A DNA stretch of 64,000 nt from Rhodocyclaceae bacterium UBA2271 (GCA_002347405.1 DDXB01000047.1:26690-90689); one strand, 5' to 3'; positions 1,300 through 47,935 are shown, counted from the stretch's first letter. The notes: generated by a model from the sequence alone, not told the origin. Translations and numbers: made by a program.

Positions 1300-1363
1300 A
1301 AAGTCGGCGCTGGTGGAGGTTTGGGTGTCCCATCAGCGCAATGTCGGCGCTGGTGGTACGGCG
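1300..1363 (+). repeat. family-A element, dimer (long) form
   Basis: AAAGTCGGCGCTGGTGGA (1300-1317), a 22-nt spacer, then AATGTCGGCGCTGGTGGTACGGCG (1340-1363). It fills the whole dapE-prmB spacer. Confidence 0.85.
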
Positions 1364-1367
1364 GCGC

Positions 1368-2507
1368 TCAAGTCAAAAGTTGTCGGAAGGTCGCTGCGTA
1401 GATGCGCGTCAGCGGCTCGATGTCGGCCAGTGCAACGCATTCGTCGATCTTGTGGATGGTGGCATTGACCGGGCCGAACTCGATGACCTCGGGACAGATG
1501 TCGGCGATGAAGCGGCCGTCGGAGGTGCCGCCGGTAGTGGAGAGCTCGGGGGTGATGCCGGTTTCGGCCTGGATGGCGGCAGTCAGGGCCGTGACCAGGC
1601 GACCGGGCGTGGTGAGGAAGGGACGGCCGCCGAGCATCCAGGCGAGCTCGTATTCGAGCTGGTGACGGTCCAGAATCTCATGCACGCGATTTTGCAGACC
1701 CTCGGCAGTGCTGGCGGTGGAAAAACGGAAATTGAACAGCACCTCGAGCGTGCCCGGCACGACGTTGGTGGCGCCGGTACCAGCGTGGATGTTCGAGATC
1801 TGGAAGCTGGTGGGCGGGAAAAATTCATTGCCGTCATCCCAGCGCGTTGCCGCGATTTCGGCCAGGGCCGGGGCCGCCAGGTGGATCGGATTTTTCACCT
1901 TCTCGGGGTAGGCAACGTGACCCTGAATCCCCTTGACGAGGAGTTTTCCGGACAGCGAGCCGCGCCGGCCGTTCTTCATCATGTCGCCCTGCCGATTGAC
2001 CGAGGTGGGCTCGCCGATGATGCAGCAGTCGAGCGTCACACCGCGCGCCTTGAGCGCCTCGAGCACGCGCACGGTGCCGTCGGTGGCGTCGCCTTCTTCG
2101 TCCGAGGTGAGCAGGAAGGCCAGCGAACCCTGCGGTTCTGGCAGGGTGGCGAGCAATTGTCCGGCAGCCACCACGGCAGCGGCTACCGAGGTTTTCATGT
2201 CAGCCGCACCACGACCAAACAGCATGCCGTCGCGTTCGGTGGGGACGAAGGGGTCGCTGTGCCATTGGTCTTCCGGACCCGGCGGCACGACGTCGATGTG
2301 GCCGGCGAAGACCACCAGCGGCTGCACGGTGCCGCGCCGCGCCCACAGATTGCAGACATGGCCGGTCGGGCCGGTGCTGTCAATGCGTTCGCAGACAAAA
2401 CCCAGCGGGGTCAGTCGATCGGCAACCAGGTCAAGACAGCCGGCATCTGCGCTGGTGATCGAGCGGCGCGCGATGAGCGCCTTGGCGAGTTCGAGGGTCG
2501 GAGTCAT
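1368..2507 (-). CDS. dapE: succinyl-diaminopimelate desuccinylase (M20 peptidase)
   Basis: 379 aa with [18 protein letters not shown] and TSDEEG metal-site motifs. The length is typical of DapE, and dapD is nearby. Confidence 0.9.
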
Positions 2508-2754
2508 TGAACGTGAAAGTCAGCGTAGCGTTTGCGCCGGGCCAGTCCCTCTCTCCCAGTGGGAGAGAGGAGGCAGATAGCTTCCCTCTCCCGCTTGCGG
2601 GAGAGGGATTGAGGGAGAGGGTTGCCAAGCAAACGCGGCACGCGCCGCCAGGCGCAACCCGCACCGAAGCATGAACGACAGCCCCGTAATAGTCGAGCGC
2701 AGCGAGCAAGCAAGAGCCCCCCGAGAGGGTGGTGAAGGGGGGCGGGCCACTTGG
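2508..2754 (-). repeat. composite 3'-flank element (family G) filling the pilU-dapE spacer
   Basis: Its reverse complement aligns with 63255-63492. The shared blocks are 2682-2707 versus 63305-63330 and 2635-2660 versus 63353-63378. The centre holds two GGGAGAGG-type hairpins (2548-2570, 2584-2607). Confidence 0.7.
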
Positions 2755-3924
2755 TCATTCCATTTTCATCGTGAACTTGGAGAAGGAGGCGCCGCTTTCC
2801 GAGGTGCTGGATTCGGCATTGGCGGGTGCCGTTTCAAGCTGCCGGTCTCCCTGTTTCCTGTCAGCCATGGCGTTGTTGATCAGCCAGTGCAGGTTATTGG
2901 CCGAGTCGGCGTTACCGAGCGCTTCTTCCAGAGTGATGGTGCCGGACTTGAATAGTGCATGCAGCGATTGCTCGAAGGTGATTGCCCCGGGCGAAAGGCT
3001 TTGCTCCATTGCCTCCTTGATGCCGCTGAGGTCACCTTTTTCGATCAGTTCGCCGACATAGCGCGAATTCAGCATGACCTCGGCGGCCGGTGTACGCGTG
3101 CCGTCCGGTTTTTTCACCAAGCGCTGGGAAATGATGCACTTCAGCGTCACCGCCAGGTCGGCCAGCAACGCAGGGCGGTTTTCCAGCGGATAAAAGCTGA
3201 TGATGCGGCTCATCGAGTGATAGCTGTTGTTGGCATGTAGTGTGGCAAGGCAGAGATGTCCGGTCTGGGCGTAGGCAATGGCCTGGGTCATCGTCTCCTT
3301 GTCGCGAATTTCGCCGATGAAGATGCAGTCCGGCGCCTGACGCAGCGCATTTTTCAGGGCAAGCGGGAAGTCGAGCGTGTCGGAACCGACTTCGCGCTGA
3401 TTGACGATGGACTTCTTGTTCTTGAAGACGAACTCGATTGGCTCTTCGAGTGTCAGGATGTGACCGGTTTTCTGTTCATTGCGATGGTCGAGCATGGCGG
3501 TGAGCGTGGTCGTCTTGCCAGAACCCGTGGCGCCGACCATCAACACGAGGCCGCGCTTCTCCATGATGATGTCGCCCAGTACCGGCGGCATGTTGAGGTC
3601 CGCCAGTCGGGGAATTTCCGTCGGGATGTAGCGCACGACGAATGCCGGGGTGCCTTTCTGGCGCATCACCGAAAGACGAAAATTGCCGATGCCTGCCTGC
3701 GCGTAACCGGTATTGAGTTCAAGCGTTTCCTCGAACTCGCGCAACTGGCGTTCGTTGAGGATTTCCTGCAGCAGGCCCATGATGGTTGTGGCATCCATGA
3801 TCTGCTGGTTGATTGGCATTGAAACGCCGTTGATCTTGATGTTGATGGGCGCGTCTACCGACACGAAGATATCCGAAGCCTTCTTGTCGGCCATCAACTG
3901 GAAGAGTCTTTGCATTGCGCCCAT
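2755..3924 (-). CDS. pilU: PilT/PilU-family type IV pilus retraction ATPase (PilU-like)
   Basis: 389 aa with Walker A GATGSGKTT and the PilT-family core (FIGEIRD, ATLHANN). The N-terminus LMADKKASDIF resembles PilU. An alternative start is at 3915. Confidence 0.75.
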   Translation of the reverse strand: MGAMQRLFQLMADKKASDIFVSVDAPINIKINGVSMPINQQIMDATTIMGLLQEILNERQLREFEETLELNTGYAQAGIGNFRLSVMRQKGTPAFVVRYIPTEIPRLADLNMPPVLGDIIMEKRGLVLMVGATGSGKTTTLTAMLDHRNEQKTGHILTLEEPIEFVFKNKKSIVNQREVGSDTLDFPLALKNALRQAPDCIFIGEIRDKETMTQAIAYAQTGHLCLATLHANNSYHSMSRIISFYPLENRPALLADLAVTLKCIISQRLVKKPDGTRTPAAEVMLNSRYVGELIEKGDLSGIKEAMEQSLSPGAITFEQSLHALFKSGTITLEEALGNADSANNLHWLINNAMADRKQGDRQLETAPANAESSTSESGASFSKFTMKME

Positions 3925-4020
3925 CGGTTTCCCCTGAAAAAAGTCAGTGTTTAATGCCGGCCTGCAGTCCTGACTTGCTCCGCAAGTTAGCCTCCAGCGC
4001 TAGCCATGTCTTTGCCATGG

Positions 4021-4839
4021 CTAGTCGCGTAGCAACTCGTTGATGCTGGTCTTTAACCGTGTCTGGGCATCGACCTTCTTGACGATCACGGCACAGTAAA
4101 GGCTGTACTTGCCATCCTTGGACGGCAGGCTGCCGCTGACGACGACGGAACCTTCCGGAACGCGACCATAGAGTACTTCGCCGGTAGCACGGTCGTAGAT
4201 CTTGGTGCTCTGACCGATGAACACGCCCATCGAAATGACGCAGTTGTCCTCGACGATGACACCTTCGACCACCTCGGAACGCGCACCGATGAAGCAGTTG
4301 TCGCCGATGATGGTCGGATTGACCTGCAGGGGTTCGATCAGGCCGCCGATGCCGACGCCGCTGGAGAGATGCACGTGATTGCCGATCTGCGCGCAGGAAC
4401 CGACGGTGACCCAGGTGTCGACCATCGTGCCTTCGCCGACATAGGCGCCGATGTTGACGAAGCTGGGCAGCACCACCACGTTGTTGCCGATGAAGGCGCC
4501 GCGCCGCACCACGGCGCCCGGGACAATGCGAAAGCCGCCCTTCTGGAAGTCATGGGTATCGTACTTGGCGAACTTGGTCGGCACCTTGTCGAAATAGCGC
4601 ATGGCACCGCCATCCATCAGCACGTTGTCTTCGAGGCGGAAGGAGAGCAGCACCGCTTTCTTGATCCACTGATGGGTGATCCACTGGCCTTCGATTTTCT
4701 CGGCGACGCGCAAGCTGCCCTTGTCGAGTTCGGCAAGGACGTGATCGACCGCCTCGCCGACACGGGCGGGAGCGGCGCCGGGTTTCAGGTTGGCGCGGTC
4801 TGCCCAGGCCTGGTCGATGAGCGTTTGCAATTCGTTCAT
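4021..4839 (-). CDS. dapD: 2,3,4,5-tetrahydropyridine-2,6-dicarboxylate N-succinyltransferase
   Basis: 272 aa with left-handed beta-helix hexapeptide repeats and a typical DapD N-terminal helical domain. Confidence 0.9.
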
Positions 4840-4874
4840 GTTGGTTTCTCGTGATTGGGATTCATGGCAGCAAG

Positions 4875-5294
4875 CTATCCGCGCGTGTTTGACTGGGACG
4901 GGAAACTGGCAAGCTCTACCGGTGCAACGGGTTTCCAGCCCTTCTTGCGATGTTCGGCGACGACATTGGTGAAAATTCCGCCGCGCACGAAAAAGCGCGC
5001 GGTCAGGCGCATGAAGCGTGGCTTCAGGGTCTGCGCCAGGTCGTCAAGGATACGGTTGGTGACGTCCTCGTGAAAATGCCCTTCGTTGCGGAAGCTCCAG
5101 ATGTAGAGCTTCAGGCTCTTCAATTCGACGCAGAGCTTGTCCGGCACATAGTCGAGTGTCAGCACCGCGAAATCCGGCTGGCCGGTTTTCGGGCACAGGC
5201 AGGTGAACTCCGGGATTTCCATGTGGATCCGGTAATCTCGTTGCGGAGCCGGATTGGTGAAGGTATCAATGATTTTGGCGGGGGCGCTGGGCAT
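4875..5294 (-). CDS. queF: NADPH-dependent 7-cyano-7-deazaguanine (preQ0) reductase, unimodular type
   Basis: 139 aa with the QueF motif [14 protein letters not shown] and the catalytic Cys. Confidence 0.9.
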
Positions 5295-5358
5295 GGCGAA
5301 TCAGGCAATGTGAGGGTGGGTGATTATAGTCGCCGTCCCCAGGTTGGCGGCGTCCCGG

Positions 5359-8337
5359 CTACGCCGTCCCGCCAGCGCCGACTTTTGCCAGCGCCTCGAA
5401 CTCATGGACCGGCACCGGCCGGCCGAAGAAGTAACCCTGATAGGCATAACAACCCGCACCAGCCAGAAAGTCGCGCTGCGCCGCGGATTCGACGCCCTCG
5501 GCGATGACGCCCAGACCCAGGCCATGGGCCAGTGCCACGACGGTTTTGGCAATCGCGGCGTCGTTGGGGTCGGTCAGCACGTCGCGCACAAACGACTGGT
5601 CGATCTTCAACTGGTCGAGCGGCAGGCGCTTGAGGTAGGACAGCGAGGAATAGCCGGTGCCGAAGTCGTCGAGGGAGAATCTCACGCCTTCTGCTTTCAG
5701 GGCGGACATCTTCCCGATGATCTGTTCGACATGGGCGACCAGCAGGCTTTCGGTCAGCTCCAGTTTCAGGCGTTGCGGATTGGCGCCGGTGCGCCGGAGC
5801 GCCATCAGCACCCGCTCCACGAAATCGGGCAGGTGGAACTGATGGGCGCTGACGTTCACCGCGATGCTCAGATGGGCCAGCGCGGGTTGTTGCGCCCAGG
5901 CGGCGAGTTGCGCGCAGGCGGTTTCCAGCACCCACTCGCCCAGCGGCACAATCAGCCCGGTTTCCTCGGCCAGGGGAATGAACTCGGCCGGTGACACCAT
6001 GCCGCGCACTGGGTGCTGCCAGCGCACCAGCACCTCGGCGCCGGTCAGACGGCCTTCACTCGCCACCTGCGCCTGGTAGTGAAGGAAAAACTGGCGCTCG
6101 TGCAGGGCGGCGCGCAATTCCGTTTCGAGCGTGACGCGCGACATCACGGCGGCCTGCATGGCCGGGTCGAAGAAGCGCAGCGTGTTGCGCCCGGCATCCT
6201 TGGCCTGGTACATGGCGAGGTCGGCCTGCTTGAGCAAATCGTCGAGGGTGACGGACTGGCTGTCGAACAGGACAATGCCGATGCTGGCCGTGGTGCGGTG
6301 CATCACCGCGCCGAGCAAAAACGCCTGGCCGAGCGCGGCGAGAATCTTTTCGCCGACCGCTTCGGTGCTGGCGGCGGCGTCTTGCTCCAGTGCGCTCAAT
6401 CCGGTCAGCACCACCACGAATTCGTCGCCGCCAATCCGCGCCACAGTGTCGCCCTCGCGCACGCAGTTCCTCAGGCGTTCCGCGACCTGTTTCAGCAACT
6501 GGTCGCCCATGTCATGGCCCTGTGTGTCGTTGAGCGTCTTGAAGTTGTCGAGATCGATGAACATCAGCGCGCCATGGCTGGCGCTGCGCGCGCTGACCGT
6601 CATGGTTTGTTTCAGGCGATCCAGCAGTAGCGTCCGGTTGGGCAGGCCGGTGAGCGTGTCAAAGAAGGCCAGGGCGTTGATTCTCTCTTCCGCCCGCTTC
6701 CTTTCCGTGATGTCGAAATGCGTGCCGACGTAATGGGTAACGGCGCCATTTTCGTCCTTCACCGCCGAGATGGTCAGCCATTTCGGATACTCCGTGCCGT
6801 CCTTCCGCCGGTCCCAGACCTCGCCCTGCCAGCCGTCGTTGCGGTCGATGCTCTCCCACATGGCGCGGTAAAAGTCCGCGTTGTGCCGGCCCGACCTGAG
6901 CAGCGCCGGCGTCTGGCCGACGGCCTCGGCAGCGCTGTAGCCGGTGGTCGCGGTAAAGGCTGCGTTGACGCGCAGGATCACGCCATGGGCATCGGTGACT
7001 ATCGTACTCTCCTGCGACTGGAAAGCGGCGGCGGCGATGCGCAGTTCGGCCTCGGCCAGCTTGCGTTCGGTGACGTCCTGCACCGTGCCGCTGGAACGCA
7101 ATGGCCGGCCCGCCGCGTCGAAGTCCGACGTGCCGCGCTCGTGCACCCACTTGATGCGGCCATCCTGCATCAGCAGCCGGTGGGTGATCTCGTAAGGCGT
7201 GCGTGATTGCAGCGACGCGGCATAGGCCTGATTCACCGCCGCGCGGTCGTCCGGGTGAATCAGCGCGAGGAAGGCGTCGTAGCTGGCCGTGAAACGCGCC
7301 GGGTCGATCTCGAAGAGGCGAAACACCTCGTCGCTCCAGAGGAGTTCGCCGCTTGCCAGGTCCAGCGTCCAGCTACCGACATGGGCGAGGCGCTGCGCTT
7401 CGTTCAGGCGTGCCGTGCTGGCGCGCAGGGCAGCCTCGCTCCGCTGGCGTTCGCCGGCATGGGCCTGCAGCGTGTTTTGCATGGCCAGCAGGCCCGCCAG
7501 CACGCTGTGTTCCATGCCGGGCGCAGTCGCGGTGCCGCCGGAGAAATCGCCGCGCCCGATTTTGAGCATCCGGGCATGGATTTCATCCACCGGGCCGCCC
7601 AGCGTCCTGCGCATGCCGGCGTAGGCGCGCCAGAGCGCGAAAAGCGCCGCCAGCAGGGTGGCGATGAGCAACCCCCGGAGCAGCAAGGCATGGTCTGTCG
7701 TCGCGCGGATGGTGGCCTGCGTGCGCTGTTCGATCAACCGGGAAAACTCGCTGAGCGGCGCCTTGATGCCGGCCTTGGCCCGGTGATAACTTTCATCGTG
7801 CAACATGCGGCGCGCCGTGGCCCGGTTGGCTTCGGTGCGCGGGCCGTCGGGCTCGGCCAGTTGCATGGCCGCGAGCTCCAGGGTGGTCAGCAGGTCCGAG
7901 TTCGTCTTGGCCTCGGCCAGCCGGGCGAATTCCGCGTCGCTGACGCCCGCCTGCCGCAGCAGGTCCAGCAGGGCGGCGGGTTGGCCGATTCGCGGTCTGG
8001 GGGAGCCAGGTTCGGCCAGCACGCGATGCCAGTAGCTCAGGTCATAACGCTCAGGTCGTGGTTGCCGGCCGTCGCGGATTTCCAGGATGTCCTGGAAATA
8101 TTGTTTGAACACGGGATTGCCGGTTGCCACATAGCCGCGGGCCATCCAGGTCAGTTCATCCGAAGTGCGGCGCAATTCTTCCGCCAGCAGAAACAGCTTG
8201 TGGCGCTGCTCATGGGCGCGGTCGATGCGTTTTTCGGCCTGCACATAAAATCCGAACACCAGCGCCAGCGCCAGGAACAGGGCGACGGTCAGCCAGATTT
8301 TTCTGAACACCGAGGGAAAGGCGGTCTTGACGGTCAT
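5359..8337 (-). CDS. membrane sensor diguanylate cyclase/phosphodiesterase (periplasmic domain-PAS-PAS-GGDEF-EAL)
   Basis: 992 aa with an N-terminal TM helix and a second TM, two PAS-like blocks, RIGGDEF and an EAL-domain core (LKLELTES, DDFGTGYSSL). The last 8 codons (KVGAGGTA) are a copy of repeat family A. Confidence 0.9.
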   Translation of the reverse strand: MTVKTAFPSVFRKIWLTVALFLALALVFGFYVQAEKRIDRAHEQRHKLFLLAEELRRTSDELTWMARGYVATGNPVFKQYFQDILEIRDGRQPRPERYDLSYWHRVLAEPGSPRPRIGQPAALLDLLRQAGVSDAEFARLAEAKTNSDLLTTLELAAMQLAEPDGPRTEANRATARRMLHDESYHRAKAGIKAPLSEFSRLIEQRTQATIRATTDHALLLRGLLIATLLAALFALWRAYAGMRRTLGGPVDEIHARMLKIGRGDFSGGTATAPGMEHSVLAGLLAMQNTLQAHAGERQRSEAALRASTARLNEAQRLAHVGSWTLDLASGELLWSDEVFRLFEIDPARFTASYDAFLALIHPDDRAAVNQAYAASLQSRTPYEITHRLLMQDGRIKWVHERGTSDFDAAGRPLRSSGTVQDVTERKLAEAELRIAAAAFQSQESTIVTDAHGVILRVNAAFTATTGYSAAEAVGQTPALLRSGRHNADFYRAMWESIDRNDGWQGEVWDRRKDGTEYPKWLTISAVKDENGAVTHYVGTHFDITERKRAEERINALAFFDTLTGLPNRTLLLDRLKQTMTVSARSASHGALMFIDLDNFKTLNDTQGHDMGDQLLKQVAERLRNCVREGDTVARIGGDEFVVVLTGLSALEQDAAASTEAVGEKILAALGQAFLLGAVMHRTTASIGIVLFDSQSVTLDDLLKQADLAMYQAKDAGRNTLRFFDPAMQAAVMSRVTLETELRAALHERQFFLHYQAQVASEGRLTGAEVLVRWQHPVRGMVSPAEFIPLAEETGLIVPLGEWVLETACAQLAAWAQQPALAHLSIAVNVSAHQFHLPDFVERVLMALRRTGANPQRLKLELTESLLVAHVEQIIGKMSALKAEGVRFSLDDFGTGYSSLSYLKRLPLDQLKIDQSFVRDVLTDPNDAAIAKTVVALAHGLGLGVIAEGVESAAQRDFLAGAGCYAYQGYFFGRPVPVHEFEALAKVGAGGTA
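5362..5385 (-). repeat. family-A 24-nt unit, exact
   Basis: CGCCGTCCCGCCAGCGCCGACTTT is the reverse complement of the consensus. It encodes the last 8 codons of the GGDEF-EAL gene. Confidence 0.95.
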
Positions 8338-8454
8338 TTAATTGGAACAGGTCGAGGCTAGACTTAATGCCCTAACTATATCGTAAGTTATTTGGCGGCC
8401 GCACATATAATGCCCGCCGATTACCATTCCATTTACCCGGTGAAGAGCGAGACC

Positions 8455-10548
8455 ATGAAAAACAACGGACCTGTCACGCAGCGCGAAGCGCCTTTCCCCA
8501 TCGGGAAATATCTGGTTTCCAAGACCGACCTGCGTGGCATCATCACCTATTGTAATGATGCTTTCATCGCTCTGTCCGGTTTTGAAAAGGCCGAGTTGAT
8601 CGGCAAGAGTCACAACATCGTGCGCCATCCGGACATGCCGGCGGCGGCGTTTGCCGATCTCTGGGCGACGGTGAAAGCCGGCCGCCCCTGGCGCGGCACC
8701 GTCAAGAATCGCTGCAAGGACGGCGACCATTACTGGGTCGACGCCTTTGTCGTACCGCTGCGCAAGAACGGCGAAACCACCGGTTACATGTCCGTGCGCT
8801 CCGAGCCGTCGCGCACGCAGGTGCGCGAGGCCGAGGCGCTGTATCAGCAGATCAACGCCGGTCAGGCAAAATTGCCGAAACCCGGCGGTTTTCTGGCGGG
8901 TCTCTCCATCCGCGCTCGGTTGATCGGCGTGATGGCCCTGATGGCGGTGATGATTGCGATGGGTTCCGTTATCGGCGTCGTTGGCCTGAGCCAGAGCAAT
9001 GAGCGGCTGCGCATGGCCTACGACGAGCATATGGAACCGGCGGTGGCCATTGCCAGGATGATCGAGCGGCTGGCCGATAATCGCGCGCAGATCATGCTGG
9101 GGATTCAGCATAGCCCGGATAACCGCTACAGCAAAATGCACGACCATTCGGTCGCGCTGCACACCGAGGCGACCCAGGCCAACCGCAAGATTATCGAGGA
9201 CCTGCGCGCGACCTATGACAATAAGCCCAAGAGCGCCGATGAAAAGGTGCTGGCGGAGGCGTTTTTCGCGGCGCGCGACGCCTATTCGAAGGAAGGTGTC
9301 AGCCTGGCGCGCGAGGCGCTCGCCGGCGGCGATTACGACACCGCGCAGATGCTGCTGCTGACCAAGATCAACCCCCTTTACAGCAAATTGCTGGAGCAGG
9401 GCGAGTCGCTGCAGCGTTATCTTCTCGCGGAAGGCGATAAAGCGCACACTGCCTCGGAGCAGGGCTACACCTGGCTGCTCAATGCGGCAATTGCCGGCAC
9501 GCTCACGGCGATCCTGCTGGTGGTGGTGATTGGCGGGTTGCTCGTCAAGGCGATCGTCGCGCCGATGCGCCAGGCCATCGCCCATTTCGAACGGATCGCC
9601 GATGGCATTCTTACCGACGAGGTCGATATCTCCCGCCGCGACGAGGCGGGTCAATTAATGAGCACCCTGGCGGTGATGCAGGTCAACCTCAAGGTGGCTC
9701 TCGATGAGGTGCGCCTGGTGTCGGTTGCGCTGGACGAGGAAAGCAAAAAACTGGCGGCGGAAATGGATCGCGTGGTTGATCAGTCGGTGCAGCAACAGGA
9801 CCGCGTGCAGGGCACAGCGGCGGCCACCGAGGAACTCACCGTCTCGGTGGGCGAGGTGGCGAGTTCGGTTGCCAGCACCGCCCAGGCGGCGACCCAGTCG
9901 AAGGCTCTCGTGGCGGAATCCACGCGCAGCATGGACAGCAGCATGGCGGCGACCGCGCGCGTGGTGGGCGCGGTGCAGGCCTCCTCCGCGACCATCGGTG
10001 ACCTGAACCGGGCGATCGAAAAGATCGGCGTGATCACCAACACGATTCGCGAAATCGCCGAACAGACCAACCTGCTGGCGCTGAATGCCGCCATCGAGGC
10101 GGCGCGCGCCGGCGAGCAGGGCCGCGGTTTTGCCGTGGTCGCCGACGAGGTGAGAAAGCTCGCCGAGCGGACCTCGTCTTCGACCGCCGATATCAACAAC
10201 ACGGTCAATGAATTTCAGAAGGTGACCCAGCAGGCGGTATCGTCGATGGAGCAGGCGGCGCAGGAAGTCGAATCGGGCATGAGCATGATGCGGGCCAGCG
10301 TGACCAGCCTCGACCAGATCCGGACTTCCAGCGATGAAGTCGCCGCCATGGCCGAAAGCATCGCCGCCGCTTCGCGTGAGCAGACGGTGGCCAGTCAGGA
10401 TGTCGCGACGAACATGGAGCAGGTGTCATCCCTGATCGAGCAGAACACCCAGTCCGCACGAAGCGCGAAGCAAGGTGCCGAATCGCTTTCGGCCACCGCC
10501 GTCGTGCTGCGCAATGTGGTGGCGCAGTTTGACCTGGTCAAGAAATAA
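8455..10548 (+). CDS. methyl-accepting chemotaxis protein with N-terminal PAS, 4-helix-bundle sensor and HAMP domains
   Basis: It opens [11 protein letters not shown] with a PAS block (RHPDMP), followed by two TM segments and the MCP signalling hairpin ([38 protein letters not shown]). The ATG at 8455 is preferred over the TTG at 8392. Confidence 0.85.
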
Positions 10549-10600
10549 GGCCCGACCTCCCCCAGTTCCTCCTTCGCCGGAGGGGAGACTGCTGCACTTC
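10549..10600 (+). repeat. head module of family G right after the MCP stop codon
   Basis: CCCGACCTCCCC...TCGCCGGAGGGGAGACTGCTGC parallels 63279-63310 (CCCGACCTCCCCTCGCGGGAAGGTGACTGTAGC). Confidence 0.55.
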
Positions 10601-10753
10601 TCTCCTCGCCCCGGGGCGGGCGGGGGAGAGGTGTAGCCACCAGAAAGCCCTTCAGCCGCAAAGCGGGAGAAGGGCGGCTCGGCGACCTGGATCATGGCCG
10701 ACTTGGCCGCCATGCACTTCGAGATCCGCACGCTGCCGCGCTGAGCCTGCGAA

Positions 10754-10780
10754 CTGGACCCCGGCCTACGCCGGGGTGAC
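10754..10780 (+). repeat. family-E hairpin (CTGGAYYCCGGCNTACGCCGGRRTGAC)
   Basis: The sequence is CTGGACCCCGGCCTACGCCGGGGTGAC, with the palindromic stem CCCCGGC/GCCGGGG. Confidence 0.75.
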
Positions 10781-10800
10781 GAAGTCGTTGGTCGTCCGCA

Positions 10801-10824
10801 AAAGTCGGCGCTGGCGGGACGGCG
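10801..10824 (+). repeat. family-A 24-nt unit, exact
   Basis: AAAGTCGGCGCTGGCGGGACGGCG lies in the MCP-TetR spacer. A partial GTCGGCGC repeat follows at 10831. Confidence 0.95.
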
Positions 10825-10850
10825 TTAATCGTCGGCGCAACCGGTTTCAT

Positions 10851-11017
10851 CCTAAAAACCTCAGATCGCACCACGGAGATCACGGAGGACACGGAGAAAC
10901 GGCGCAAGCACACAAAATTCAGGCGCACCCAACGGGCGACATGCGCTTATTACGTAACGCCTTGTTTTTTTCTCCATGATCACCGTGTCCTCCGTGGTGA
11001 ACTGCTTTTTCTAGGAT
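10851..11017 (+). mobile_element. MITE-like ~165-bp element (family D), copy 1
   Basis: The arms at 10869-10896 and 10972-10999 are inverted and each consists of three 9-nt iterations ending CACGGAG. The copy aligns end to end with 17490-17653 and has no coding capacity. Confidence 0.7.
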
Positions 11018-11024
11018 AAAACCC

Positions 11025-11053
11025 TTGCTTTACCGGAGCTTTTTTTCTAAAAT
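11025..11053 (+). promoter_or_regulatory. sigma70-like promoter of the TetR-fadE-fadI-fadJ operon
   Basis: TTGCTT-N17-TAAAAT lies 35 nt upstream of the TetR ATG. Confidence 0.45.
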
Positions 11054-11070
11054 TCAAACGAACGTATGAA
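11053..11070. promoter_or_regulatory. candidate TetR operator (inverted repeat TTCAAACG-AA-CGTATGAA)
   Basis: 7 of 9 arm positions are complementary. It abuts the -10 hexamer and shares the AAACG-NN-CGT core with 24621-24640. Confidence 0.5.
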
Positions 11071-11087
11071 TTATTGGAAAAGTACTC

Positions 11088-11750
11088 ATGGCTGAAACGC
11101 GTTCTGTCGATACTCGCGAGCGGATTCTCGATACAGCGGAGAGACTATTTACGGCCAATGGTTTCGACGGCACCTCGATGCGCCAGATCACCGGCGCGGC
11201 GGAGGTGAATCTGGCGTCCGTGAATTATCACTTCGGTTCCAAGGAAGCCTTGATGCGGGAAGTATTCCGCCGCCGCCTGGCTTGGTTGAATACCGAGCGG
11301 CTTCGTGTCCTGGACGAAATGGAAAGTAAGGCGGGCGACAAGCCGTTGAAGCCGTCCCAGATTGTCGAAGGATTTTTTGGCACGTTGCTGAGCATGGCGC
11401 AGGATGAATCACGTGGCGGGGTCACTTTCCTTCGCCTCCTGGGACGCACGCTGACCGATCCTGCGGACTTTATCCGCACTTTTCTTGCCGACGAGTATCA
11501 GGAGGTTGTCGAGCGTTACAAGTCAGCGTTGTTCAAGGCTTTGCCCGATGTGCCGCGCGCCGAGATCGCCTGGCGCTTCCATTTCATGCTCGGCGCGACC
11601 TCATATGCGATTGCCGGCACGGACGCCCTGCGGCTGGTCACCGACTGGGGAGTCGAAGATGAAGATGCGATCGATCGCCTCGACCGGCTGCCACAGCGCC
11701 TGATGTCCTTTCTGCTGGGCGGACTGCGCGCCCCGCTGCCAAAATTTTAA
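11088..11750 (+). CDS. TetR-family transcriptional regulator (candidate fatty-acid degradation repressor)
   Basis: 220 aa with an N-terminal TetR HTH (RILDTAERLFTANGFDGTSMRQITGAAEVNLASVNYHFGSKE). It is the first gene of a fadE-fadI-fadJ-like operon. Confidence 0.85.
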   Translation: MAETRSVDTRERILDTAERLFTANGFDGTSMRQITGAAEVNLASVNYHFGSKEALMREVFRRRLAWLNTERLRVLDEMESKAGDKPLKPSQIVEGFFGTLLSMAQDESRGGVTFLRLLGRTLTDPADFIRTFLADEYQEVVERYKSALFKALPDVPRAEIAWRFHFMLGATSYAIAGTDALRLVTDWGVEDEDAIDRLDRLPQRLMSFLLGGLRAPLPKF

Positions 11751-11827
11751 TCAGCACTTTCCTCATTCGCTAGCACTGCCGGCACCAAGCAATCCGATCA
11801 AGCCGGTTCAATCAGGAGATTCACAGT

Positions 11828-14182
11828 ATGAACACCTCCATCACCCTGCTGCTGGGTATCGTCGTCCTGGCAATCGTGGTTGGTCTGTTCCTGATCCGCC
11901 CGTTGCGCCGCACGCTGATTACCCGGCCAATATTTGCCACTTATCGCAGCCTCCTGCCACAGATGTCGGATACCGAGAAAGAGGCGCTCGAAGCGGGTAC
12001 CGTCTGGTGGGAAGGGGAGTTGTTCCGCGGCCGGCCGGACTGGAAAAAGTTGCATGCCTACCCGCGCCCCAAGCTGACTGCCGCTGAACAGTCCTTCCTG
12101 GACAATGAGGTTACTACTGCCTGCAGCCTGGTCGATGACTGGCAGGTAACGCACGAACTCCACGACATGCCCGAAGCAGCCTGGCGCTACCTCAAGGACA
12201 AGGGCTTCCTTGGCATGATCATTCCGAAGCGCTATGGTGGCCTGGAATTCTCCGCCTATGCACATTCGCAGGTGATCACCAAGCTTTCCACCCGCTCGTC
12301 GGCAATGGCCGTATCGGTGATGGTGCCGAATTCGCTCGGCCCGGCCGAACTGCTGCTGCACTACGGTACCGAGGAACAGAAAAACCACTATCTGCCGCGG
12401 CTGGCCAAGGGCATCGAAGTGCCGGCTTTCGCGCTGACCAGTCCGTGGGCCGGTTCCGACGCTGCCTCGATCCCCGATAGCGGCATTGTCTGCAAGGGCA
12501 TGTGGCAGGGCAAGGAAGTGCTTGGCATGCGCGTGACCTGGGACAAGCGCTACATCACGCTGGCGCCGCTGTGCACCATCCTCGGCCTGGCTGTCCGCCT
12601 GTTCGACCCGGACGGTTTGCTGGGTGACAAGAAGGATATCGGCATCACCTGCGCACTGGTTCCTTACGATCATCCTGGTGTGGATACCGGCCGCCGGCAT
12701 TTTCCGCTCAACGCGATGTTCACCACCGGCCCTACGCGCGGCACGGATGTCTTCATGCCGCTCGATTTCATCATCGGCGGGCCGGCGAATGCCGGCCAGG
12801 GCTGGCGCATGCTGATGGAATGTCTGGCGGCGGGTCGCTCGATTTCGCTGCCATCGTCGCATATCGGCATGGCACAGATGACGGCACGTGCCGTCGGCGG
12901 TTACGCCCGCGTGCGCAGTCAGTTCAAGCTGGCGCTGGGCCGCTTCGAGGGCGTCGAAGAGGGGCTGACGCGTATCGGCGCCTACACGTACCTTATGGAC
13001 GCCACGCGCAGGATGACGGCCGGTGCCGTCGATCTGGGCGAGAAGCCGTCGGTGGTTTCTGCCATCGCCAAATATCACGTCACCGAGCGCGCTCGTCAGG
13101 TAGTGAATGACGGCATGGATATCATCGGCGGCAAGGGCATCTGCCTCGGCCCGTCCAATTTCCTCGGCCGCGCCTACCAGCAGGTGCCGATCGGCATTAC
13201 CGTCGAAGGCGCCAACATCCTGACCCGCTCCCTGATCATTTTCGGGCAAGGCGCGATCCGCTGCCATCCTTATCTGCTCCCCGAAATGCAGGCTGCGCAG
13301 AATCCAGATGAAAAGAGGGGCCTCGTCGATTTTGACCGGGCGCTGTGGGCGCATATCGGCTTTACCATCAGAAACGGGTTTTATGCACTTTGGCTGGGCA
13401 TGACCGGTTCGCACTTCGTCCCGGTGGGTGCCAGCGTGGCGCCCGAAATGCGCCGCTATTACCAGCAACTCACCCGCTTCTCGTCGGCCTTCGCCTTCCT
13501 CACGGATATTTCGCTGCTGGTGCTGGGTGGCAGTGCCAAGCGCCGTGAGAAGATTTCCGGACGGCTTGGCGACATCCTCGCGCAGATGTACCTGATGTCC
13601 TGCACCTTGAAACGCTATGAGGATGAAGGTCGCCAGCAGGCCGATGCCCCATTGGCCCATTGGGCGATCTGGGATTCAATGTACAAGGCGCAGCAGGCTT
13701 TCGAAGGCGTGATCGCCAATTTCCCGATCCGTTTCGTCGGTGCCATCCTGCATCGCAGCATCTTTCCCTGGGGTTATCCCTATGTATTCCCCTCCGACGA
13801 CCTGGGCCAGGAGGTCGCCAAGGCCATGATCGCACCGTCGGCGACGCGCGACCGCCTGACGGCCGAATGCTATTTGCCGCCCTCAGAGAACGAGCCGGTC
13901 GGCGCCATTGAGTTGGCATTGCTGGCGACGCTGGAAGCCGAGCCGATCGAAGCGAAGATTCGCGAGGCCGAAAAGTCTGGCCGTTTCGAGGGCGATCCGC
14001 GCGCCAACGTGCGCGATATCGCGGTGGTTGCTGCCGAGCAGGGCGTGATTTCAACGGCCGAATATGAGGTGATGAAGCGCCGTAATGCCTTGCGCGATAT
14101 CGTTGTGCGCGTCGACGATTTTCCGTTCGACTTCGGTGTGGCGACGGCCAACAAGCCTCCCGCATCCCGCATGGGGGACTGA
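11828..14182 (+). CDS. fadE: large acyl-CoA dehydrogenase (FadE type)
   Basis: 784 aa with an N-terminal membrane-anchor-like helix, an ACAD core and a FadE-type C-terminal extension. It lies in a beta-oxidation operon. Confidence 0.8.
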   Translation: MNTSITLLLGIVVLAIVVGLFLIRPLRRTLITRPIFATYRSLLPQMSDTEKEALEAGTVWWEGELFRGRPDWKKLHAYPRPKLTAAEQSFLDNEVTTACSLVDDWQVTHELHDMPEAAWRYLKDKGFLGMIIPKRYGGLEFSAYAHSQVITKLSTRSSAMAVSVMVPNSLGPAELLLHYGTEEQKNHYLPRLAKGIEVPAFALTSPWAGSDAASIPDSGIVCKGMWQGKEVLGMRVTWDKRYITLAPLCTILGLAVRLFDPDGLLGDKKDIGITCALVPYDHPGVDTGRRHFPLNAMFTTGPTRGTDVFMPLDFIIGGPANAGQGWRMLMECLAAGRSISLPSSHIGMAQMTARAVGGYARVRSQFKLALGRFEGVEEGLTRIGAYTYLMDATRRMTAGAVDLGEKPSVVSAIAKYHVTERARQVVNDGMDIIGGKGICLGPSNFLGRAYQQVPIGITVEGANILTRSLIIFGQGAIRCHPYLLPEMQAAQNPDEKRGLVDFDRALWAHIGFTIRNGFYALWLGMTGSHFVPVGASVAPEMRRYYQQLTRFSSAFAFLTDISLLVLGGSAKRREKISGRLGDILAQMYLMSCTLKRYEDEGRQQADAPLAHWAIWDSMYKAQQAFEGVIANFPIRFVGAILHRSIFPWGYPYVFPSDDLGQEVAKAMIAPSATRDRLTAECYLPPSENEPVGAIELALLATLEAEPIEAKIREAEKSGRFEGDPRANVRDIAVVAAEQGVISTAEYEVMKRRNALRDIVVRVDDFPFDFGVATANKPPASRMGD

Positions 14183-14184
14183 AC

Positions 14185-15471
14185 ATGTCAGGGAAAGCGA
14201 TATATGTCGTCGACGGTGCGCGCACGCCGTTCCTGAAGGCCAGGACCGGCCCCGGCCCGTTTGCCGCTTCCGATCTGGCGACGCAGGCCGGCCGCGCGCT
14301 GCTGCTGCGCCAGCCCTTTGCCCCGCAGGACCTTGACGAGGTCATCCTCGGCTGTGCCGCGCCCTCGCCGGATGAAACCAACATCGGTCGCCTGGTGGCG
14401 CTGCGTCTCGGTTGTGGCCACAAGGTGCCGGCTTGGACAGTGATGCGCAACTGCGCATCGGGCATGCAGGCCATCGATTCCGCCATGGTGAATATCCAGG
14501 CGGGCCGTTCCGAGCTGGTGTTGGCGGGCGGCGTCGATGCGCTGTCGCGCGCGCCGCTGCTGTATTCCGACACCATGGTGCACTGGTTCGCCGCCATGAT
14601 GCAGATGCGGACGTTGGGACAAAAGCTTGGCCATTTCCTGAAACTCAAACCCGCCGCGCTGTTCTCTCCCGTGATCGGGCTGATGAAGGGCCTGACCGAT
14701 CCGATGGTCGGTCTCCTGATGGGGCAGACGGCGGAAAACCTTGCCTGGAAGTTTGCTATCACGCGCCAGCAGATGGATGAATTTTCGGTACGCAGCCATC
14801 AGCGGGCACTGGCCGGGCGGGCGGTCGGGCATTTCGACGAGGTCGTACCGCTGGTGGATGCCAACGGCACGGTTTATGCCGTGGATGACGGCGTGCGCGA
14901 TGACGCCAGTCTGTCCGGCATGGCCAAACCGAAACCGTTTTTCGACAAGAAGTACGGCAACATCACGGCCGCCAACAGCTCGCAGATTACCGATGGCGCC
15001 GCCTGGGTGCTGCTCGCCAGCGAGGCAGCCGTCGCCCGCTGGAACTTGCAGCCGCTCGGCCGCATCGTCGACAGTCAGTGGGCCGGTCTTGACCCGGCCA
15101 TGATGGGTCTTGGCCCGGTCCATGCGTCAACGCCGCTGCTGCAGCGTAACAAGCTGACGCTGGCCGACATCGATTACTGGGAGCTGAACGAAGCCTTTGC
15201 CGCGCAGGTGCTGGCCTGTCAGGCCGCGTGGCAGGACGATGCCTATTGCCGCGAGCAGCTCGACTTGCCGGGCGCGCTGGGCGTGCTTGATGACAGCCGC
15301 CTGAATGTCGATGGCGGAGCGGTGGCGATCGGCCATCCGGTCGGCGCTTCGGGAACGCGCATCGTGCTGCACCTGCTGCATGTACTGCGGCGTGAGAAAG
15401 CCAAACGCGGCATCGCCACCATCTGTATCGGTGGTGGTCTGGGCGGCGCCATGTTGGTGGAGGCCTGTTGA
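14185..15471 (+). CDS. fadI: acetyl-CoA C-acyltransferase (3-ketoacyl-CoA thiolase, FadI-like long form)
   Basis: 428 aa thiolase (NCASGMQAI active-site Cys, GHPVGASG, CIGGGLG) with the FadI-type internal insertion. It is coupled to the next gene, whose ATG lies 1 nt after the stop. Confidence 0.8.
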   Translation: MSGKAIYVVDGARTPFLKARTGPGPFAASDLATQAGRALLLRQPFAPQDLDEVILGCAAPSPDETNIGRLVALRLGCGHKVPAWTVMRNCASGMQAIDSAMVNIQAGRSELVLAGGVDALSRAPLLYSDTMVHWFAAMMQMRTLGQKLGHFLKLKPAALFSPVIGLMKGLTDPMVGLLMGQTAENLAWKFAITRQQMDEFSVRSHQRALAGRAVGHFDEVVPLVDANGTVYAVDDGVRDDASLSGMAKPKPFFDKKYGNITAANSSQITDGAAWVLLASEAAVARWNLQPLGRIVDSQWAGLDPAMMGLGPVHASTPLLQRNKLTLADIDYWELNEAFAAQVLACQAAWQDDAYCREQLDLPGALGVLDDSRLNVDGGAVAIGHPVGASGTRIVLHLLHVLRREKAKRGIATICIGGGLGGAMLVEAC

Positions 15472-15472
15472 G

Positions 15473-17425: not shown

Positions 17426-17449
17426 CGAAAACAGGGTAACCGTGACTCC

Positions 17450-17476
17450 GTCACCCCGGCGTAAGCCGGGGTCCAG
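17450..17476 (-). repeat. family-E hairpin, inverted copy
   Basis: GTCACCCCGGCGTAAGCCGGGGTCCAG is the reverse complement of the family consensus. Confidence 0.75.
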
Positions 17477-17489
17477 ACGGCTGAACCAC

Positions 17490-17653: not shown

Positions 17654-17655
17654 CA

Positions 17656-32071: not shown

Positions 32072-32095
32072 CGCCGTCCCGCCAGCGCCGACTTT
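32072..32095 (-). repeat. family-A 24-nt unit, exact
   Basis: It is the reverse complement of the consensus and lies between the convergent acyl-CoA dehydrogenase and azlD genes, touching the azlD stop. Confidence 0.95.
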
Positions 32096-36868: not shown

Positions 36869-40636
<3,768 letters not shown>

Positions 40637-40640
<4 letters not shown>

Positions 40641-45457: not shown

Positions 45458-46326
45458 TGTTGCCAGAGGCCCGCGAACAATTAGTCGGCGCTGGTGAGAC
45501 GGCGCAACTGGGCCACGTTGACCTGGAGGCCGCGCATGTGCCGAAGCTCTACGGTGAACCGATGCCGGAGATGCCGCGCGACCTCTACATTCCGCCCGAT
45601 GCGCTGGAAATCATTCTCGACGCCTTCGAGGGTCCGCTCGATCTGCTGCTGTATCTGATCCGCAAGGCCAACCTGAGCATCCTCGATATTCCGATGGCGC
45701 CGTTGACCGCGCAATATCTCGTATATGTCGAGGCGATGCGGCGCACCAACCTCGAACTGGCTGCCGACTACCTGCTGATGGCAGCGATGCTGATCGAAAT
45801 CAAATCGCGCATGCTGTTGCCGCGCCCACCGCGGACCGATGGCGGCGAGCCGGAAGATCCGCGTGCCGAACTGGTGCGCCGCCTGATGGAATACGAGCGT
45901 ATCAAGCAGGCAGCCGCCAAGCTCGACGCGCTGCCGCAGGTACATCGCGACTATGAGTGGGCATCGGTGTGGATCGCCGAGAAGGTTGCCGCGCGGGCGC
46001 CGGAAGTGAGCGTGCATGATTTGCAGGTGGTCTGGCTGGCACTGATGCGCCAGGCCAAGATGCACCAGCATCACCGCATTCAGCGCGAGGAACTTTCGGT
46101 ACGCGAACACATGGGACTGATCCTGCGCCGCCTGCAGGGCCGCAACTACGTGGTCTTCGACGACCTGTTTGAAGCAGGCGGCGAGCACAGCACGCTGTCC
46201 AGCCTGGTGGTGAGCTTCCTGGCCATCCTCGAATTGTCGCGCGAGCGCCTCGTCGAACTGACCCAGAGCGAGGCACTGGCGCCCATCTATGTAAAATTGA
46301 GCGATGCTGCAACTCTACAAACCTGA
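45454..46326 (+). CDS. scpA: segregation and condensation protein A
   Basis: It has [14 protein letters not shown] and the ScpA kleisin pattern, and is followed by scpB. The N-terminal 20 codons include a diverged family-A unit, so the start is uncertain. Confidence 0.8.
45481..45504 (+). repeat. family-A 24-nt unit (4 mismatches) at the scpA 5' end
   Basis: TTAGTCGGCGCTGGTGAGACGGCG is translated LVGAGETA if the ATG at 45454 is used. Confidence 0.65.
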
Positions 46327-46987
46327 AGACTTCAAGCGCGTCCTTGAAACGGCGCTGCTGGCGGCGGTCGAGCCGCTATCGCTGGCCGAACTGAAGAAAC
46401 TGTTCGACGAGCCCTTCGACGACGATACCTGGCGCACCCTGCTGGACGACTTGCGCCGCGACTGGGCGGACCGTGGCGTGGAGTTGGTGCAACTCGCGTC
46501 GGGTTGGCGTTTCCAGACGCGCCCGGAGTATCAGGGCTTTCTCGACCGGCTGAAGAACGAAAGGCCGCAGAAGTATTCCCGGGCCGTCATGGAGACGCTG
46601 GCGATCATTGCCTATCGTCAGCCGGTCACGCGCGGGGACATCGAGGATATTCGTGGCGTTGCGGTATCGCCCAACATAATCAGGACGCTGGAAGGCCGCG
46701 GTTGGGTGGATACTGTCGGCCACCGCGATACACCCGGCCGACCGGCGTTGTATGCCACAACCAGAAAGTTTCTTGATGACTTGAGTCTGCGCAGCCTGTC
46801 CGAATTGCCGCCGCTGGCCGAGATTGAACGGATGATCGATGCCCAACCCCCCGAAGACCCCACCACGCCAGAAAACCCGCTCCCCGCAAGCACCACGCAG
46901 TCCGGTGGGCAGCCGACCGTCGAAGTCAGCGACAGCGAAAACAACTCCGCGCAAAGCGACGCCTTTTCGGGCGCCAACCCGAACTGA
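46304..46987 (+). CDS. scpB: segregation and condensation protein B
   Basis: It has [34 protein letters not shown] winged-helix motifs and an acidic low-complexity tail. Confidence 0.85.
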
Positions 46988-47774
46988 CAAGCCGGCGCGG
47001 CCGGCGCAAACCGCGTCGGAACAGTCGACCGTCAAGCTGCAAAAAGCACTCGCCGATGCCGGCCTGGGTTCGCGCCGCGAGATCGAGGAATGGATTGCCG
47101 CCGGACGCATCGCTGTCAATGGCGAGCCGGCGCATTTGGGGCAGCGCATCTGTGCTACCGACAAGGTCAAGGTCGGTGGGCGTCTCGTCAATTTGCACTT
47201 TGCCGCGCGCACACCGCGCGTGCTGGTTTATCACAAGCCAGAAGGCGAGATCGTCTCGCGCGACGACCCACAGGGCCGGCCGAGTGTATTCAATGCCCTG
47301 CCGCGCTTGCGCGGCGGACGCTGGGTCGCCATCGGGCGGCTTGATTTCAATTCCTGCGGCCTGTTGCTGTTCACCACCGATGGCGCGCTGGCCAACCGCC
47401 TGATGCACCCGCGCTATGGCATCGACCGGGAATACGCAGTGCGGGTGCTGGGCGAAGTGAATGAGGCAGCCTTGAAGCAATTGACCGATGGCATTGAACT
47501 CGAAGACGGCATGGCCAAGTTCATCCGGCTCAGGCCGGCGGGTGGGGAGGGCGCCAACCACTGGTACAACGTGACCCTGGATGAAGGGCGCAATCGCGAG
47601 GTACGGCGCATGTTCGAGGCGGTCGGCGCCACCGTCAGCAGGCTGATGCGCGTGCGTTACGGGCCGATTGTCCTGCCGTCCAACCTGAAGCGGGGGCAAA
47701 GCCGCGAACTGACGGTCGACGAGGTACAGGCGCTGCTGAAAGTCCTCAAGGTTACCGAGGACAGCCGGGAATAG
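46839..47774 (+). CDS. rluB: 23S rRNA pseudouridine synthase RluB-like with basic N-terminal extension
   Basis: It has an S4 domain ([21 protein letters not shown]), the catalytic [17 protein letters not shown] and the scpB-rluB synteny. No in-frame start lies after the scpB stop, so the start is at 46839 (ATG) or 46905 (GTG) and overlaps scpB. Confidence 0.8.
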
Positions 47775-47818
47775 GAATCCCGCCTTACCACCGGTCCCGC
47801 AAAGGGGATTCCCTTCGG

Positions 47819-47833
47819 TCACGCCGACTTTTG
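47819..47833 (-). repeat. family-A unit, truncated
   Basis: CACGCCGACTTTTGG matches the 3' part of the inverted unit plus the TTGG flank seen at 47932-47938. Confidence 0.5.
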
Positions 47834-47911
47834 GTTCAGGCCATGCTGTACCACCTAACCGGCTTGTTCCGGTTAGCCTCCACCGAATGCCGGTTTTACC
47901 CGTACCGGACT

Positions 47912-47935
47912 CGCCGTCCCGCCAGCGCCGACTTT
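47912..47935 (-). repeat. family-A 24-nt unit, exact
   Basis: It is the reverse complement of the consensus and lies in the rluB-rimP spacer. Confidence 0.95.

Follow-up and report, generated by a model that had tools for sequence, protein, structure and literature searches.

Why does the same word of 24 nucleotides (nt) lie both in spacers and in the reading frames of unrelated genes? The question is raised by a 64,000-nt stretch of DNA from Rhodocyclaceae bacterium UBA2271 (GCA_002347405.1, DDXB01000047.1:26690-90689), referred to here as the window. An initial annotation of the window had taken the word for either a mobile or recombinationally spread micro-element that adds eight codons at a time or a selected recognition word comparable to the DNA uptake sequences (DUS) of Neisseriaceae and the uptake signal sequences (USS) of Pasteurellaceae. 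We found that the second of these explanations fits the data far better than the first. That the word, whatever its function, is an actively maintained and convergently created DNA word, and not an inserted unit, is well supported. By analogy with DUS and USS, we tentatively propose that it is a lineage-specific recognition signal, most likely one that serves natural transformation as an uptake or "self-DNA" tag and is kept by drive or by selection.

Sequence, abundance, and distribution of the word

The word reads R-AAAGTCGGCGCTGGCG-NN-ACGGCG and was searched for as the 24-mer AAAGTCGGCGCTGGCGGGACGGCG, which is exact at five sites of the window. The initial annotation had staked its interpretation on an excess of the word over k-mer expectation, and this excess is large: 12 copies with four or fewer mismatches are present in the window, against 0.00 expected (third-order Markov model), and none of 100 dinucleotide shuffles of the window gave a match. 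All five exact copies and all five near-copies listed in that annotation were recovered, the latter within the range of 1 to 4 mismatches stated there, and their host genes and reading frames were also correctly identified (Table 1). The numbers of window copies at 0, 1, 2, 3, and 4 mismatches are 5, 1, 2, 2, and 2, respectively, with the 5′ piece of the composite at 17183 counted as a 4-mismatch copy, while those at 5, 6, and 7 mismatches are 0, 1, and 4 (expected values of 0.05, 0.6, and 3.3). Given this bimodal spectrum, without an excess at 5 to 7 mismatches, we infer that old copies are not neutrally decaying.

The edges of the word are sharp. In a sequence logo built from 225 copies (window plus 113 further loci), information falls from ~2 bits per position to ~0 at both edges, which bears out the earlier observation that the flanks are unrelated; the sole flank signal is a purine at position −1 (A in 61% and G in 30% of the copies). 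Since similarity to the consensus was the criterion for a copy, the logo is inflated, but the abruptness of the edges is unaffected by this artefact. Within the word, positions 17 and 18 are the only strongly variable ones, with GG being the commonest dinucleotide, followed by GA, AT, AC, and GC. Separate logos of genic and intergenic copies have the same edges, with nothing informative beyond position −1, and the word is, therefore, not the core of a larger element; on these grounds a larger hidden element was ruled out. With the word masked, no 12-mer is enriched as a companion, and only GC-rich, low-complexity 12-mers recur. The window (~61% G+C), part of a contig of JGI metagenome 3300040971, has no match to an Rfam family at gathering thresholds. 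All six frames of the word are free of stop codons, as had been stated earlier and as holds by direct reading.

Copies are found in genes and between them, in both orientations. Genes were called with a codon-usage gene finder (coding fraction of 0.87), and among 226 copies 119 (53%) are located in genes, 8, all of them in sense, lie over a stop codon, and 99 (44%) are intergenic, the intergenic enrichment being ~5.7-fold. Genic copies most often occupy sense phase 0 (KVGAGGTA, 46 copies), followed by antisense phase 2 (AVPPAPTF, 29 copies), antisense phase 0 (RRPASADF, 20 copies), and sense phase 2 (KSALAGRR, 15 copies), with 9 copies in the remaining two frames. Sense and antisense copies are similarly numerous in genes (62 versus 57) and between co-directional genes (31 versus 27). 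Orientation relative to local GC skew is 84:60, at most a weak trend with replication that is not significant, and the window, where the skew is positive throughout, carries 7 copies on the plus and 5 on the minus strand. Intergenic copies are closer to the upstream stop codon (median of 44 nt) than to the next start codon (103 nt), and divergent promoter regions are depleted of them. In the window, spacing is more even than random (coefficient of variation of 0.47, P = 0.008), at roughly one copy per 6 kb; the density of non-seed copies in the 113 other loci is 1 per 7.8 kb.

To describe the distribution of the word across the clade, we used two sets of loci. A scan of one genome per species for the exact word retrieved at least 113 stretches. 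These belong to at least 53 species-representative assemblies in the Sulfuritalea/Sulfurisoma branch of Rhodocyclaceae, which are named as Sulfuritalea, Sulfurisoma, Propionivibrio, Methyloversatilis, Azonexus, Rugosibacter, Thiobacillus, Casimicrobiaceae, or plain Rhodocyclaceae. The second, unbiased set comprises loci fetched by anchor proteins regardless of the word; loci are cited below by their L numbers. The word is present at 1 to 4 mismatches in L146 (LigA 92% identical to that of the window; 3 copies in 13 kb), L147 and L152 (85%; 8 copies in 44 kb), L154 (80%; 4 copies in 22 kb), and L153 (78%; 6 copies in 22 kb). Only versions with 3 to 5 mismatches are found in L149 (Ca. Nitricoxidivorans), and only versions with 4 to 5 mismatches in L148, which belongs to the complete isolate genome of Sulfuricystis multivorans (AP018718) and has its degenerate copies at orthologous positions. 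The Dechloromonas-like locus L151 has 0 copies even at 6 mismatches. No dialects were resolved within the clade, where the variable dinucleotide differs inside single genomes. All four copies in S. multivorans (at 1184, 3859, 10705, and 16738) end in GGCA and not in GGCG, which, at n = 4, might indicate an outgroup dialect. No copy was found in 72,556 plasmids or 50,697 phage genomes. An origin from a plasmid, phage, or vector was rejected, partial matches in the plasmid and phage collections being at chance level only; the density of additional copies in viral-labelled contigs of IMG/VR, which is somewhat lower, speaks neither for nor against it.

Origin of solo copies and of composites

A mobile unit of eight codons, as the initial annotation had it, should be recognizable by empty sites of eight residues in orthologues, and such sites were found at none of the five testable coding sites. 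In ligA, AVTPAPTL aligns with LEGGELPD of Escherichia coli with one additional residue and is three codons longer than the corresponding segment of L149; nearly all of 120 LigA homologues (73 to 92% identity) read AV[SPTL]PAPT[FL] at this position. The smc gene has the same length in six genomes, in which the site shows 10 to 12 mismatches to the word (L148, L149, and L154), 4 mismatches (L153), or 2 mismatches (the window and L147). The intermediate retains ancestral bases, and the series reads as stepwise convergence. The fadB-type gene of the outgroup L151 carries GTGCTGGGCGAAGCCGGTGCCACC (VLGEAGAT) at the site, a block of exactly 24 nt that is flanked by conserved sequence and identical to the window at 13 of 24 nt. 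At the fadJ-like site, homologues from Dechloromonas, Ferribacterium, and Azonexus have K-AAAGSV where the clade has KVGAGGTA, a difference of one codon. Finally, in a tsaE-like gene LLR-KVGFGGTA-KSPTYTL of L104 corresponds without an indel to LLR-AAGDSGPV-KSPTYTL of L113; the flanks are identical at 22 of 24 nt and the word block at 11 of 24, in a pair that comes from loci fetched by exact match and is, therefore, biased toward conservation. Because the five sites differ by 0 to 3 codons and not by 8, the solo copies formed in place, by stepwise substitution at peptide-tolerant positions, and not by insertion. At all five sites the earlier sequence was already word-like, and the position is a loop, a linker, a tail, or a coiled coil.

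A true insertion in the same window served as a positive control. An 84-nt palindrome-rich element lies in frame in smc (35970-36050) and has a clean empty site in L147; it is a true coding insertion that resembles the Rickettsia palindromic elements (RPEs). The likeness of the clade's repeats to RPEs and to elements resembling miniature inverted-repeat transposable elements, namely, that they are read through in essential genes, holds for this element and for the composites described below. Solo words, in contrast, have no empty sites, no palindrome, and no RPE-like change in length.

These comparisons make a 24-nt micro-element that spreads by mobility or recombination, in the manner of RPEs, a very unlikely source of the word. 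Its sharp boundaries, unrelated flanks, stop-free frames, and length that is a multiple of 3 would all suit such an element, as would length differences at some intergenic or gene-end sites (L082 versus L048; L104:2987 versus L113) and the composites, which are true insertions. Against it stand the lack of a 24-nt empty site at the five coding sites and the graded convergence in smc. Moreover, old shared copies are not decaying, and a genuine inserted element does leave a clean empty site. Neither target-site duplications nor terminal repeats were found around solo words, whose flanks are uninformative, and no hairpin, split word, or associated transposase was seen.

Two candidates for an external partner of the word were also rejected. 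A split-word search for a target of an insertion sequence or other element (prefix, 20 to 3500 nt, suffix, and a duplication of 0 to 6 nt) returned only ordinary neighboring copies. For an associated gene, like the REP-associated tyrosine transposases (RAYTs) of repetitive extragenic palindromic (REP) sequences, we examined the densest cluster of copies, L088, and nothing in it recurs elsewhere. At 4150-4795, this locus contains a segment of ~500 nt with a small open reading frame, bordered by two inverted repeats of ~75 nt that both carry the word at the inner end. Also in this region are a pair of toxin-antitoxin-like genes and another, REP-like palindrome (GCCGTGGCGCGGCTTTATCGCGCGACGGC) in several copies.

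The composite form of the word has a different history. It is 64 to 69 nt long, consists of word positions 1 to ~18, a spacer of 22 to 27 nt, and a full word, and was found at six places (window 1300, window 17183, L014, L104, and a tandem pair in L024). With the consensus GGTTTGG-GCGYCCCGC..GCGC, the spacer represents a partial inverted word; five composites were folded, of which three are strong hairpins (z from −2.5 to −3.7). At the fadJ-like site, L152 has a single word, AAAGTCGGCGCTGGCGGA followed by ACGGCG, and the window has 42 extra nt at the junction of these two parts (positions 18/19); the composites are, therefore, true insertions into pre-existing words. The 22-residue unit of the initial annotation is accordingly a real insertion, but one that enters a word already in place. 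Two of its three partial copies, 1300-1317 and 17183-17200, proved to be the 5′ halves of composites of 64 to 66 nt, whereas the third, 47819-47833, is only an 11-nt match. Genic composites are in frame, with an insertion of 42 nt or of 45 nt twice in tandem, while the intergenic ones measure 40 to 41 nt. In other lineages, the fadJ-like word is enlarged differently, by 30 nt (KVDASGTALA), and in several LigA homologues extra sequence adjoins the word. Words already present seed local insertions of 30 to 45 nt, those of 40 to 45 nt being placed after word positions 16 to 19 and accompanied by a duplicated 5′ half. That one spacer occurs at unrelated words implies exchange between copies or a common template.

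The tandem case in L024 (4525-4650, minus strand) consists of a 45-nt word-based unit repeated twice and then a full word, and the encoded ASADFGRSSGTSKPA repeat belongs to a DEAD-box helicase, where it is part of the disordered C-terminal tail; more degenerate units are present in its vicinity. Copies of the word are otherwise dispersed and do not form an array of clustered regularly interspaced short palindromic repeats (CRISPR). The lone array is this one, with its 45-nt period, near-identical "spacers," and in-frame position in the helicase tail.

The changes at coding sites and the composites also bear on the possibility that biased repair or gene conversion makes and homogenizes a word without function, through nicking, mismatch correction, or ectopic conversion. 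In-place changes are concentrated in the block (11 of 24 nt identical in the tsaE-like gene, 13 of 24 in the fadB-type gene) and have sharp edges, and the composite spacer shared by non-orthologous words implies sequence exchange. Such a process has been discussed for the highly iterated palindrome HIP1 of cyanobacteria, an abundant 8-base-pair (bp) palindrome that is tolerated in genes, formed in place, and kept up at the DNA level; the word differs from it in being 24 bp long and non-palindromic. However, 24 bp without flanking homology are too short for RecA-type conversion, sites identical at 12 to 14 of 24 nt could not pair with a donor, and intermediates with ancestral bases point to single substitutions. 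We know of no enzyme associated with such a process, and we consider it an unlikely explanation. Some of the same observations could be accommodated by a machine with ~24-bp specificity, such as a nucleic-acid-guided or modular-repeat binder, that reads and perhaps writes the word, marks resident DNA as "self," and overwrites near-matching 24-nt blocks by templated short-patch conversion. Such a machine would account for the sharp edges, the block-wise rewriting in conserved genes, the spread of the composite spacer among unrelated copies, and the variable dinucleotide at positions 17 and 18, which is also the insertion point of composites; we consider its existence doubtful.

Maintenance of the word and its possible function

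Once formed, copies of the word are conserved more strictly than their surroundings. The words at 32072 and 47912 are both identical at 24 of 24 nt between the window and L147, in the first case next to intergenic DNA with a 45-nt indel and in the second with one side diverged and carrying an indel. The scpA word is a conserved island, with 1 to 5 mismatches in five genomes between flanks that are 32 to 72% identical and contain indels; it is identical at 21 of 24 nt between the window and L153, where the flanks are 50% identical, and it persists between indels in Sulfuricystis.

Codon choice shows at which level the constraint acts. Of 200 occurrences of the peptide VGAGGT, 170 are encoded by precisely the 18 nt of the word, and the other encodings listed are single-base variants. 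The rare codons kept are GCT, which makes up 10% of the Ala codons, and GGG, with 11% of the Gly codons; the antisense frame likewise retains the rare CCA and ACT. From codon usage alone, the chance of encoding KVGAGGTA by exactly the word's eight codons is ~6e−5; the codon data set is enriched in the word, and the weight of the argument lies in the near-total lack of other encodings. From the retention of rare codons, we conclude that the constraint acts on DNA and not on protein. The initial annotation had noted that the same residues encoded by diverged DNA would mean an ancestral protein sequence, and orthologues were found to keep the residues with the same DNA, rare codons included.

Selection for the peptide itself, as a KVGAGGTA linker, or an assembly or adapter artefact of metagenome-assembled genomes (MAGs) is extremely unlikely in light of these data. 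It is true that the commonest genic frame encodes a linker-like peptide rich in Gly and Ala and that nearly all of the genomes are MAGs. However, five or six frames are used, 44% of the copies are intergenic, and the same rare codons recur nearly always. Copies stem from separate projects and technologies, degenerate orthologous copies are present in a complete isolate genome, and the plasmid and phage collections lack the word.

The reading that we tentatively prefer, an uptake or "self-DNA" tag, would work as follows. Hundreds of copies per genome would be kept by a process that reads double-stranded DNA and is blind to strand and transcription. The sequence-specific part of a DNA-handling machine would prefer fragments that bear the word, and alleles that gain or improve a word would be fixed more often, either through recombination (molecular drive) or through direct selection. 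Preferential fixation of this kind would explain the even spacing, the bimodal mismatches, and the sharing of one word by at least 53 species at sites that are not orthologous. For DUS and USS, it is accepted that fragments bearing the word are taken up in preference to others and then recombine. Exchange of DNA may also be reflected in the comparison of the window with L146. The two are 99 to 100% identical over 11 kb (39.1-50 kb), 72 to 88% identical at 37.1-39.0 kb (zipA plus two-thirds of ligA, counted from its 5′ end), and 81 to 90% identical at 40.7-41.1 kb, with one mosaic boundary ~200 nt from the ligA word. This pattern suggests either imported recombination tracts, and hence frequent homologous exchange, or a chimeric MAG.

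The word shares with DUS and USS that it is a single over-represented word, found clade-wide at non-orthologous sites and in both orientations and fading outside the clade. Stepwise formation at tolerant positions, conservation of the DNA itself, strand symmetry, and even spacing likewise belong to the signature described for DUS and USS (PMC2817400; bioRxiv 10.1101/2025.10.24.684340). About half of the copies are genic, in favored frames and at poorly conserved residues (PMC2817400), and copies are made in place without indels and enriched downstream of genes (PMC2817400; bioRxiv 10.1101/2025.10.24.684340). A bias of DUS and USS to genome-maintenance genes has been reported (bioRxiv 10.1101/2025.10.24.684340), and the occurrence of the word in smc, ligA, and scpA is reminiscent of it. 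The differences are equally clear. Uptake sequences have cores of 9 to 12 bp and occur about once per 1.2 kb, compared with 24 to 25 bp and about one copy per 6 to 8 kb for the word. About half of the known uptake sequences lie in terminators (bioRxiv 10.1101/2025.10.24.684340), whereas the copies in the first 20 kb of the window are located outside predicted terminators, and the word rarely forms inverted pairs and has no dialects resolved in the clade. A late-2025 survey still regards such sequences as confined to Neisseriaceae and Pasteurellaceae, the two families, both host-associated, from which they are known by experiment (bioRxiv 10.1101/2025.10.24.684340). The hosts of the word, in contrast, are free-living environmental Rhodocyclaceae without reported competence.

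Several observations weigh against an uptake signal, or against how far the data can carry it. The word is nearly invariant and, at 24 to 25 bp, about twice as long as a DUS or USS core, its copies are ~5 times sparser, and we know of no uptake receptor that reads 24 to 25 bp. A solo word is non-palindromic and without secondary structure (folding z = −0.2), and close inverted pairs number only ~5 among 226 copies. Within positions 1 to 20000 of the window, no predicted terminator overlaps a copy, and a role of the word in termination was rejected on the same grounds. Full-text literature searches returned nothing on the sequence itself or on uptake sequences or competence in Rhodocyclaceae or Sulfuritalea. 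Thirty-two viral-labelled contigs of IMG/VR carry the word once each, and for the segments around the copies at 5362 and 10801 a close relative has no orthologue. As for the data, nearly all word-bearing genomes are MAGs. The logo and the cross-species counts derive partly from loci picked for the exact word and, therefore, overstate conservation, and the unbiased set is small (seven syntenic genomes, three to five sites).

The length of the word invites a further alternative, in which it is the binding site of a chromosome-organizing or other DNA-binding protein (acting in nucleoid structure, condensin loading, or domain boundaries) and each copy is selected for its function in the chromosome. 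The regular spacing of ~6 kb, the strand symmetry, and the conserved orthologous copies are consistent with such a role, and a footprint of 24 to 25 bp is easier to reconcile with a multi-domain or oligomeric binder than with a pilin. Yet the sites parS, matS, SlmA-binding sites (SBS), Noc-binding sites (NBS), and the FtsK-orienting polar sequences (KOPS) are 8 to 16 bp long, often palindromic or strand-skewed, and regionally restricted. In addition, weak selection per site hardly explains the rewriting of ligA, smc, and tsaE with rare codons, for which a transmission advantage is an easier explanation. We regard a chromosomal binding site as somewhat unlikely.

Other interspersed repeats resemble the word only in part. 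REP sequences and REPINs with their RAYTs are likewise short interspersed repeats in hundreds of copies and of similar unit length, but REPs are palindromic, extragenic, and usually species-specific, whereas the word is non-palindromic, half genic, and present in at least 53 species. Chi and KOPS are also genome-wide oligomers recognized by DNA-processing machines; they are, however, 8-mers with a strong replication-strand skew, which the word lacks.

If the word is an uptake signal, the evolutionary signature of DUS and USS has arisen independently in free-living sulfur- or hydrogen-oxidizing or wastewater Rhodocyclaceae. This would raise the questions of whether uptake sequences are a general outcome of transformation and which receptor reads 24 bp. 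It would also help to define the limit of drive over protein coding, given the rewriting of loops and linkers in LigA, SMC, ScpA, the TsaE-like protein, and beta-oxidation enzymes with rare codons. Even if the function is different, the clade has an actively maintained 24-bp word in at least 53 species for which a description in the literature was not found. For binning and for assigning contigs to hosts, the word offers a sharp taxonomic marker, and it is a possible handle for genetic manipulation of a clade with few tools.

Copies in the window and neighboring features

Table 1. Copies of the 24-nt word, composites, and a partial match in the window
Feature	Coordinates	Strand	Context and reading
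Composite	1300-1363	+	Intergenic; 18-nt 5′ half-word 1300-1317, 22-nt spacer, full word 1340-1363 (3 mismatches)
Exact word	5362-5385	−	Final 8 residues (KVGAGGTA) of a 992-aa PAS-GGDEF-EAL protein; stop codon directly after
Exact word	10801-10824	+	Intergenic, 3′ of gene 8410-10548; adjoins a hairpin; overlaps no predicted terminator
In-frame composite	17183-17248	+	fadJ-like gene; half-word 17183-17200, 24-nt spacer, exact word 17225-17248 (KVGAGGTA); encodes KVGAGGLVGAPPAPKVGAGGTA
Word, 2 mismatches	26061-26084	+	IVGAGGTA in linker of a 799-aa fadB-type enzyme
Exact word	32072-32095	−	Overlaps the stop of an AzlD-like gene, 32095-32418 (−); TGA takes the word's first A
Word, 2 mismatches	35775-35798	+	QESALAERR in smc coiled-coil region
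Word, 1 mismatch	38784-38807	−	Antisense to ligA; AVTPAPTL, adenylation-domain surface loop
Word, 4 mismatches	45481-45504	+	LVGAGETA near the scpA 5′ end
11-nt partial match, AAAGTCGGCGT	~47823-47833	−	~80 nt from the 47912 copy; relic or chance
Exact word	47912-47935	−	Intergenic, between rluB and rimP
Word, 3 mismatches	58998-59021	−	Sense in alaS, KVGNGVTA; new relative to the initial annotation

In the composite at 1300-1363, which totals 64 nt, the spacer holds a partial inverted word and the hairpin has a z score of −2.5; its copy-to-copy period of 40 nt is no multiple of 3. Three of the seven word-bearing genes of the window (smc, ligA, and scpA) are chromosome maintenance genes, and in other loci the word is also found in tsaE-like, queG-like, and DEAD-box helicase genes. 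The 9-nt sequence CACGGAGAA is tandemly repeated 3.6 times at 10872-10902, which is ~50 nt downstream of the exact word 10801-10824.

The palindrome-rich element in smc is a family of 81- to 84-nt sequences, CAGGAAACACGCCGGGCC...GCGGCTTTTTCGGGGGGGGC, and adds 28 codons to that gene. A copy with 79% identity (window 38013-38093) forms an N-terminal extension of LigA, and further copies are located in L146 (967-1047), L147 (10015-10095), L039 (5467-5546), and L016 (6065-6145).

Between ligA and an NTP-transferase gene, the window and L146 have an ORF6N-domain (PF10543) gene, at 40101-40640 in the window. This gene is absent at that position in L147, L148, L153, and L154 and is probably an accessory insertion.

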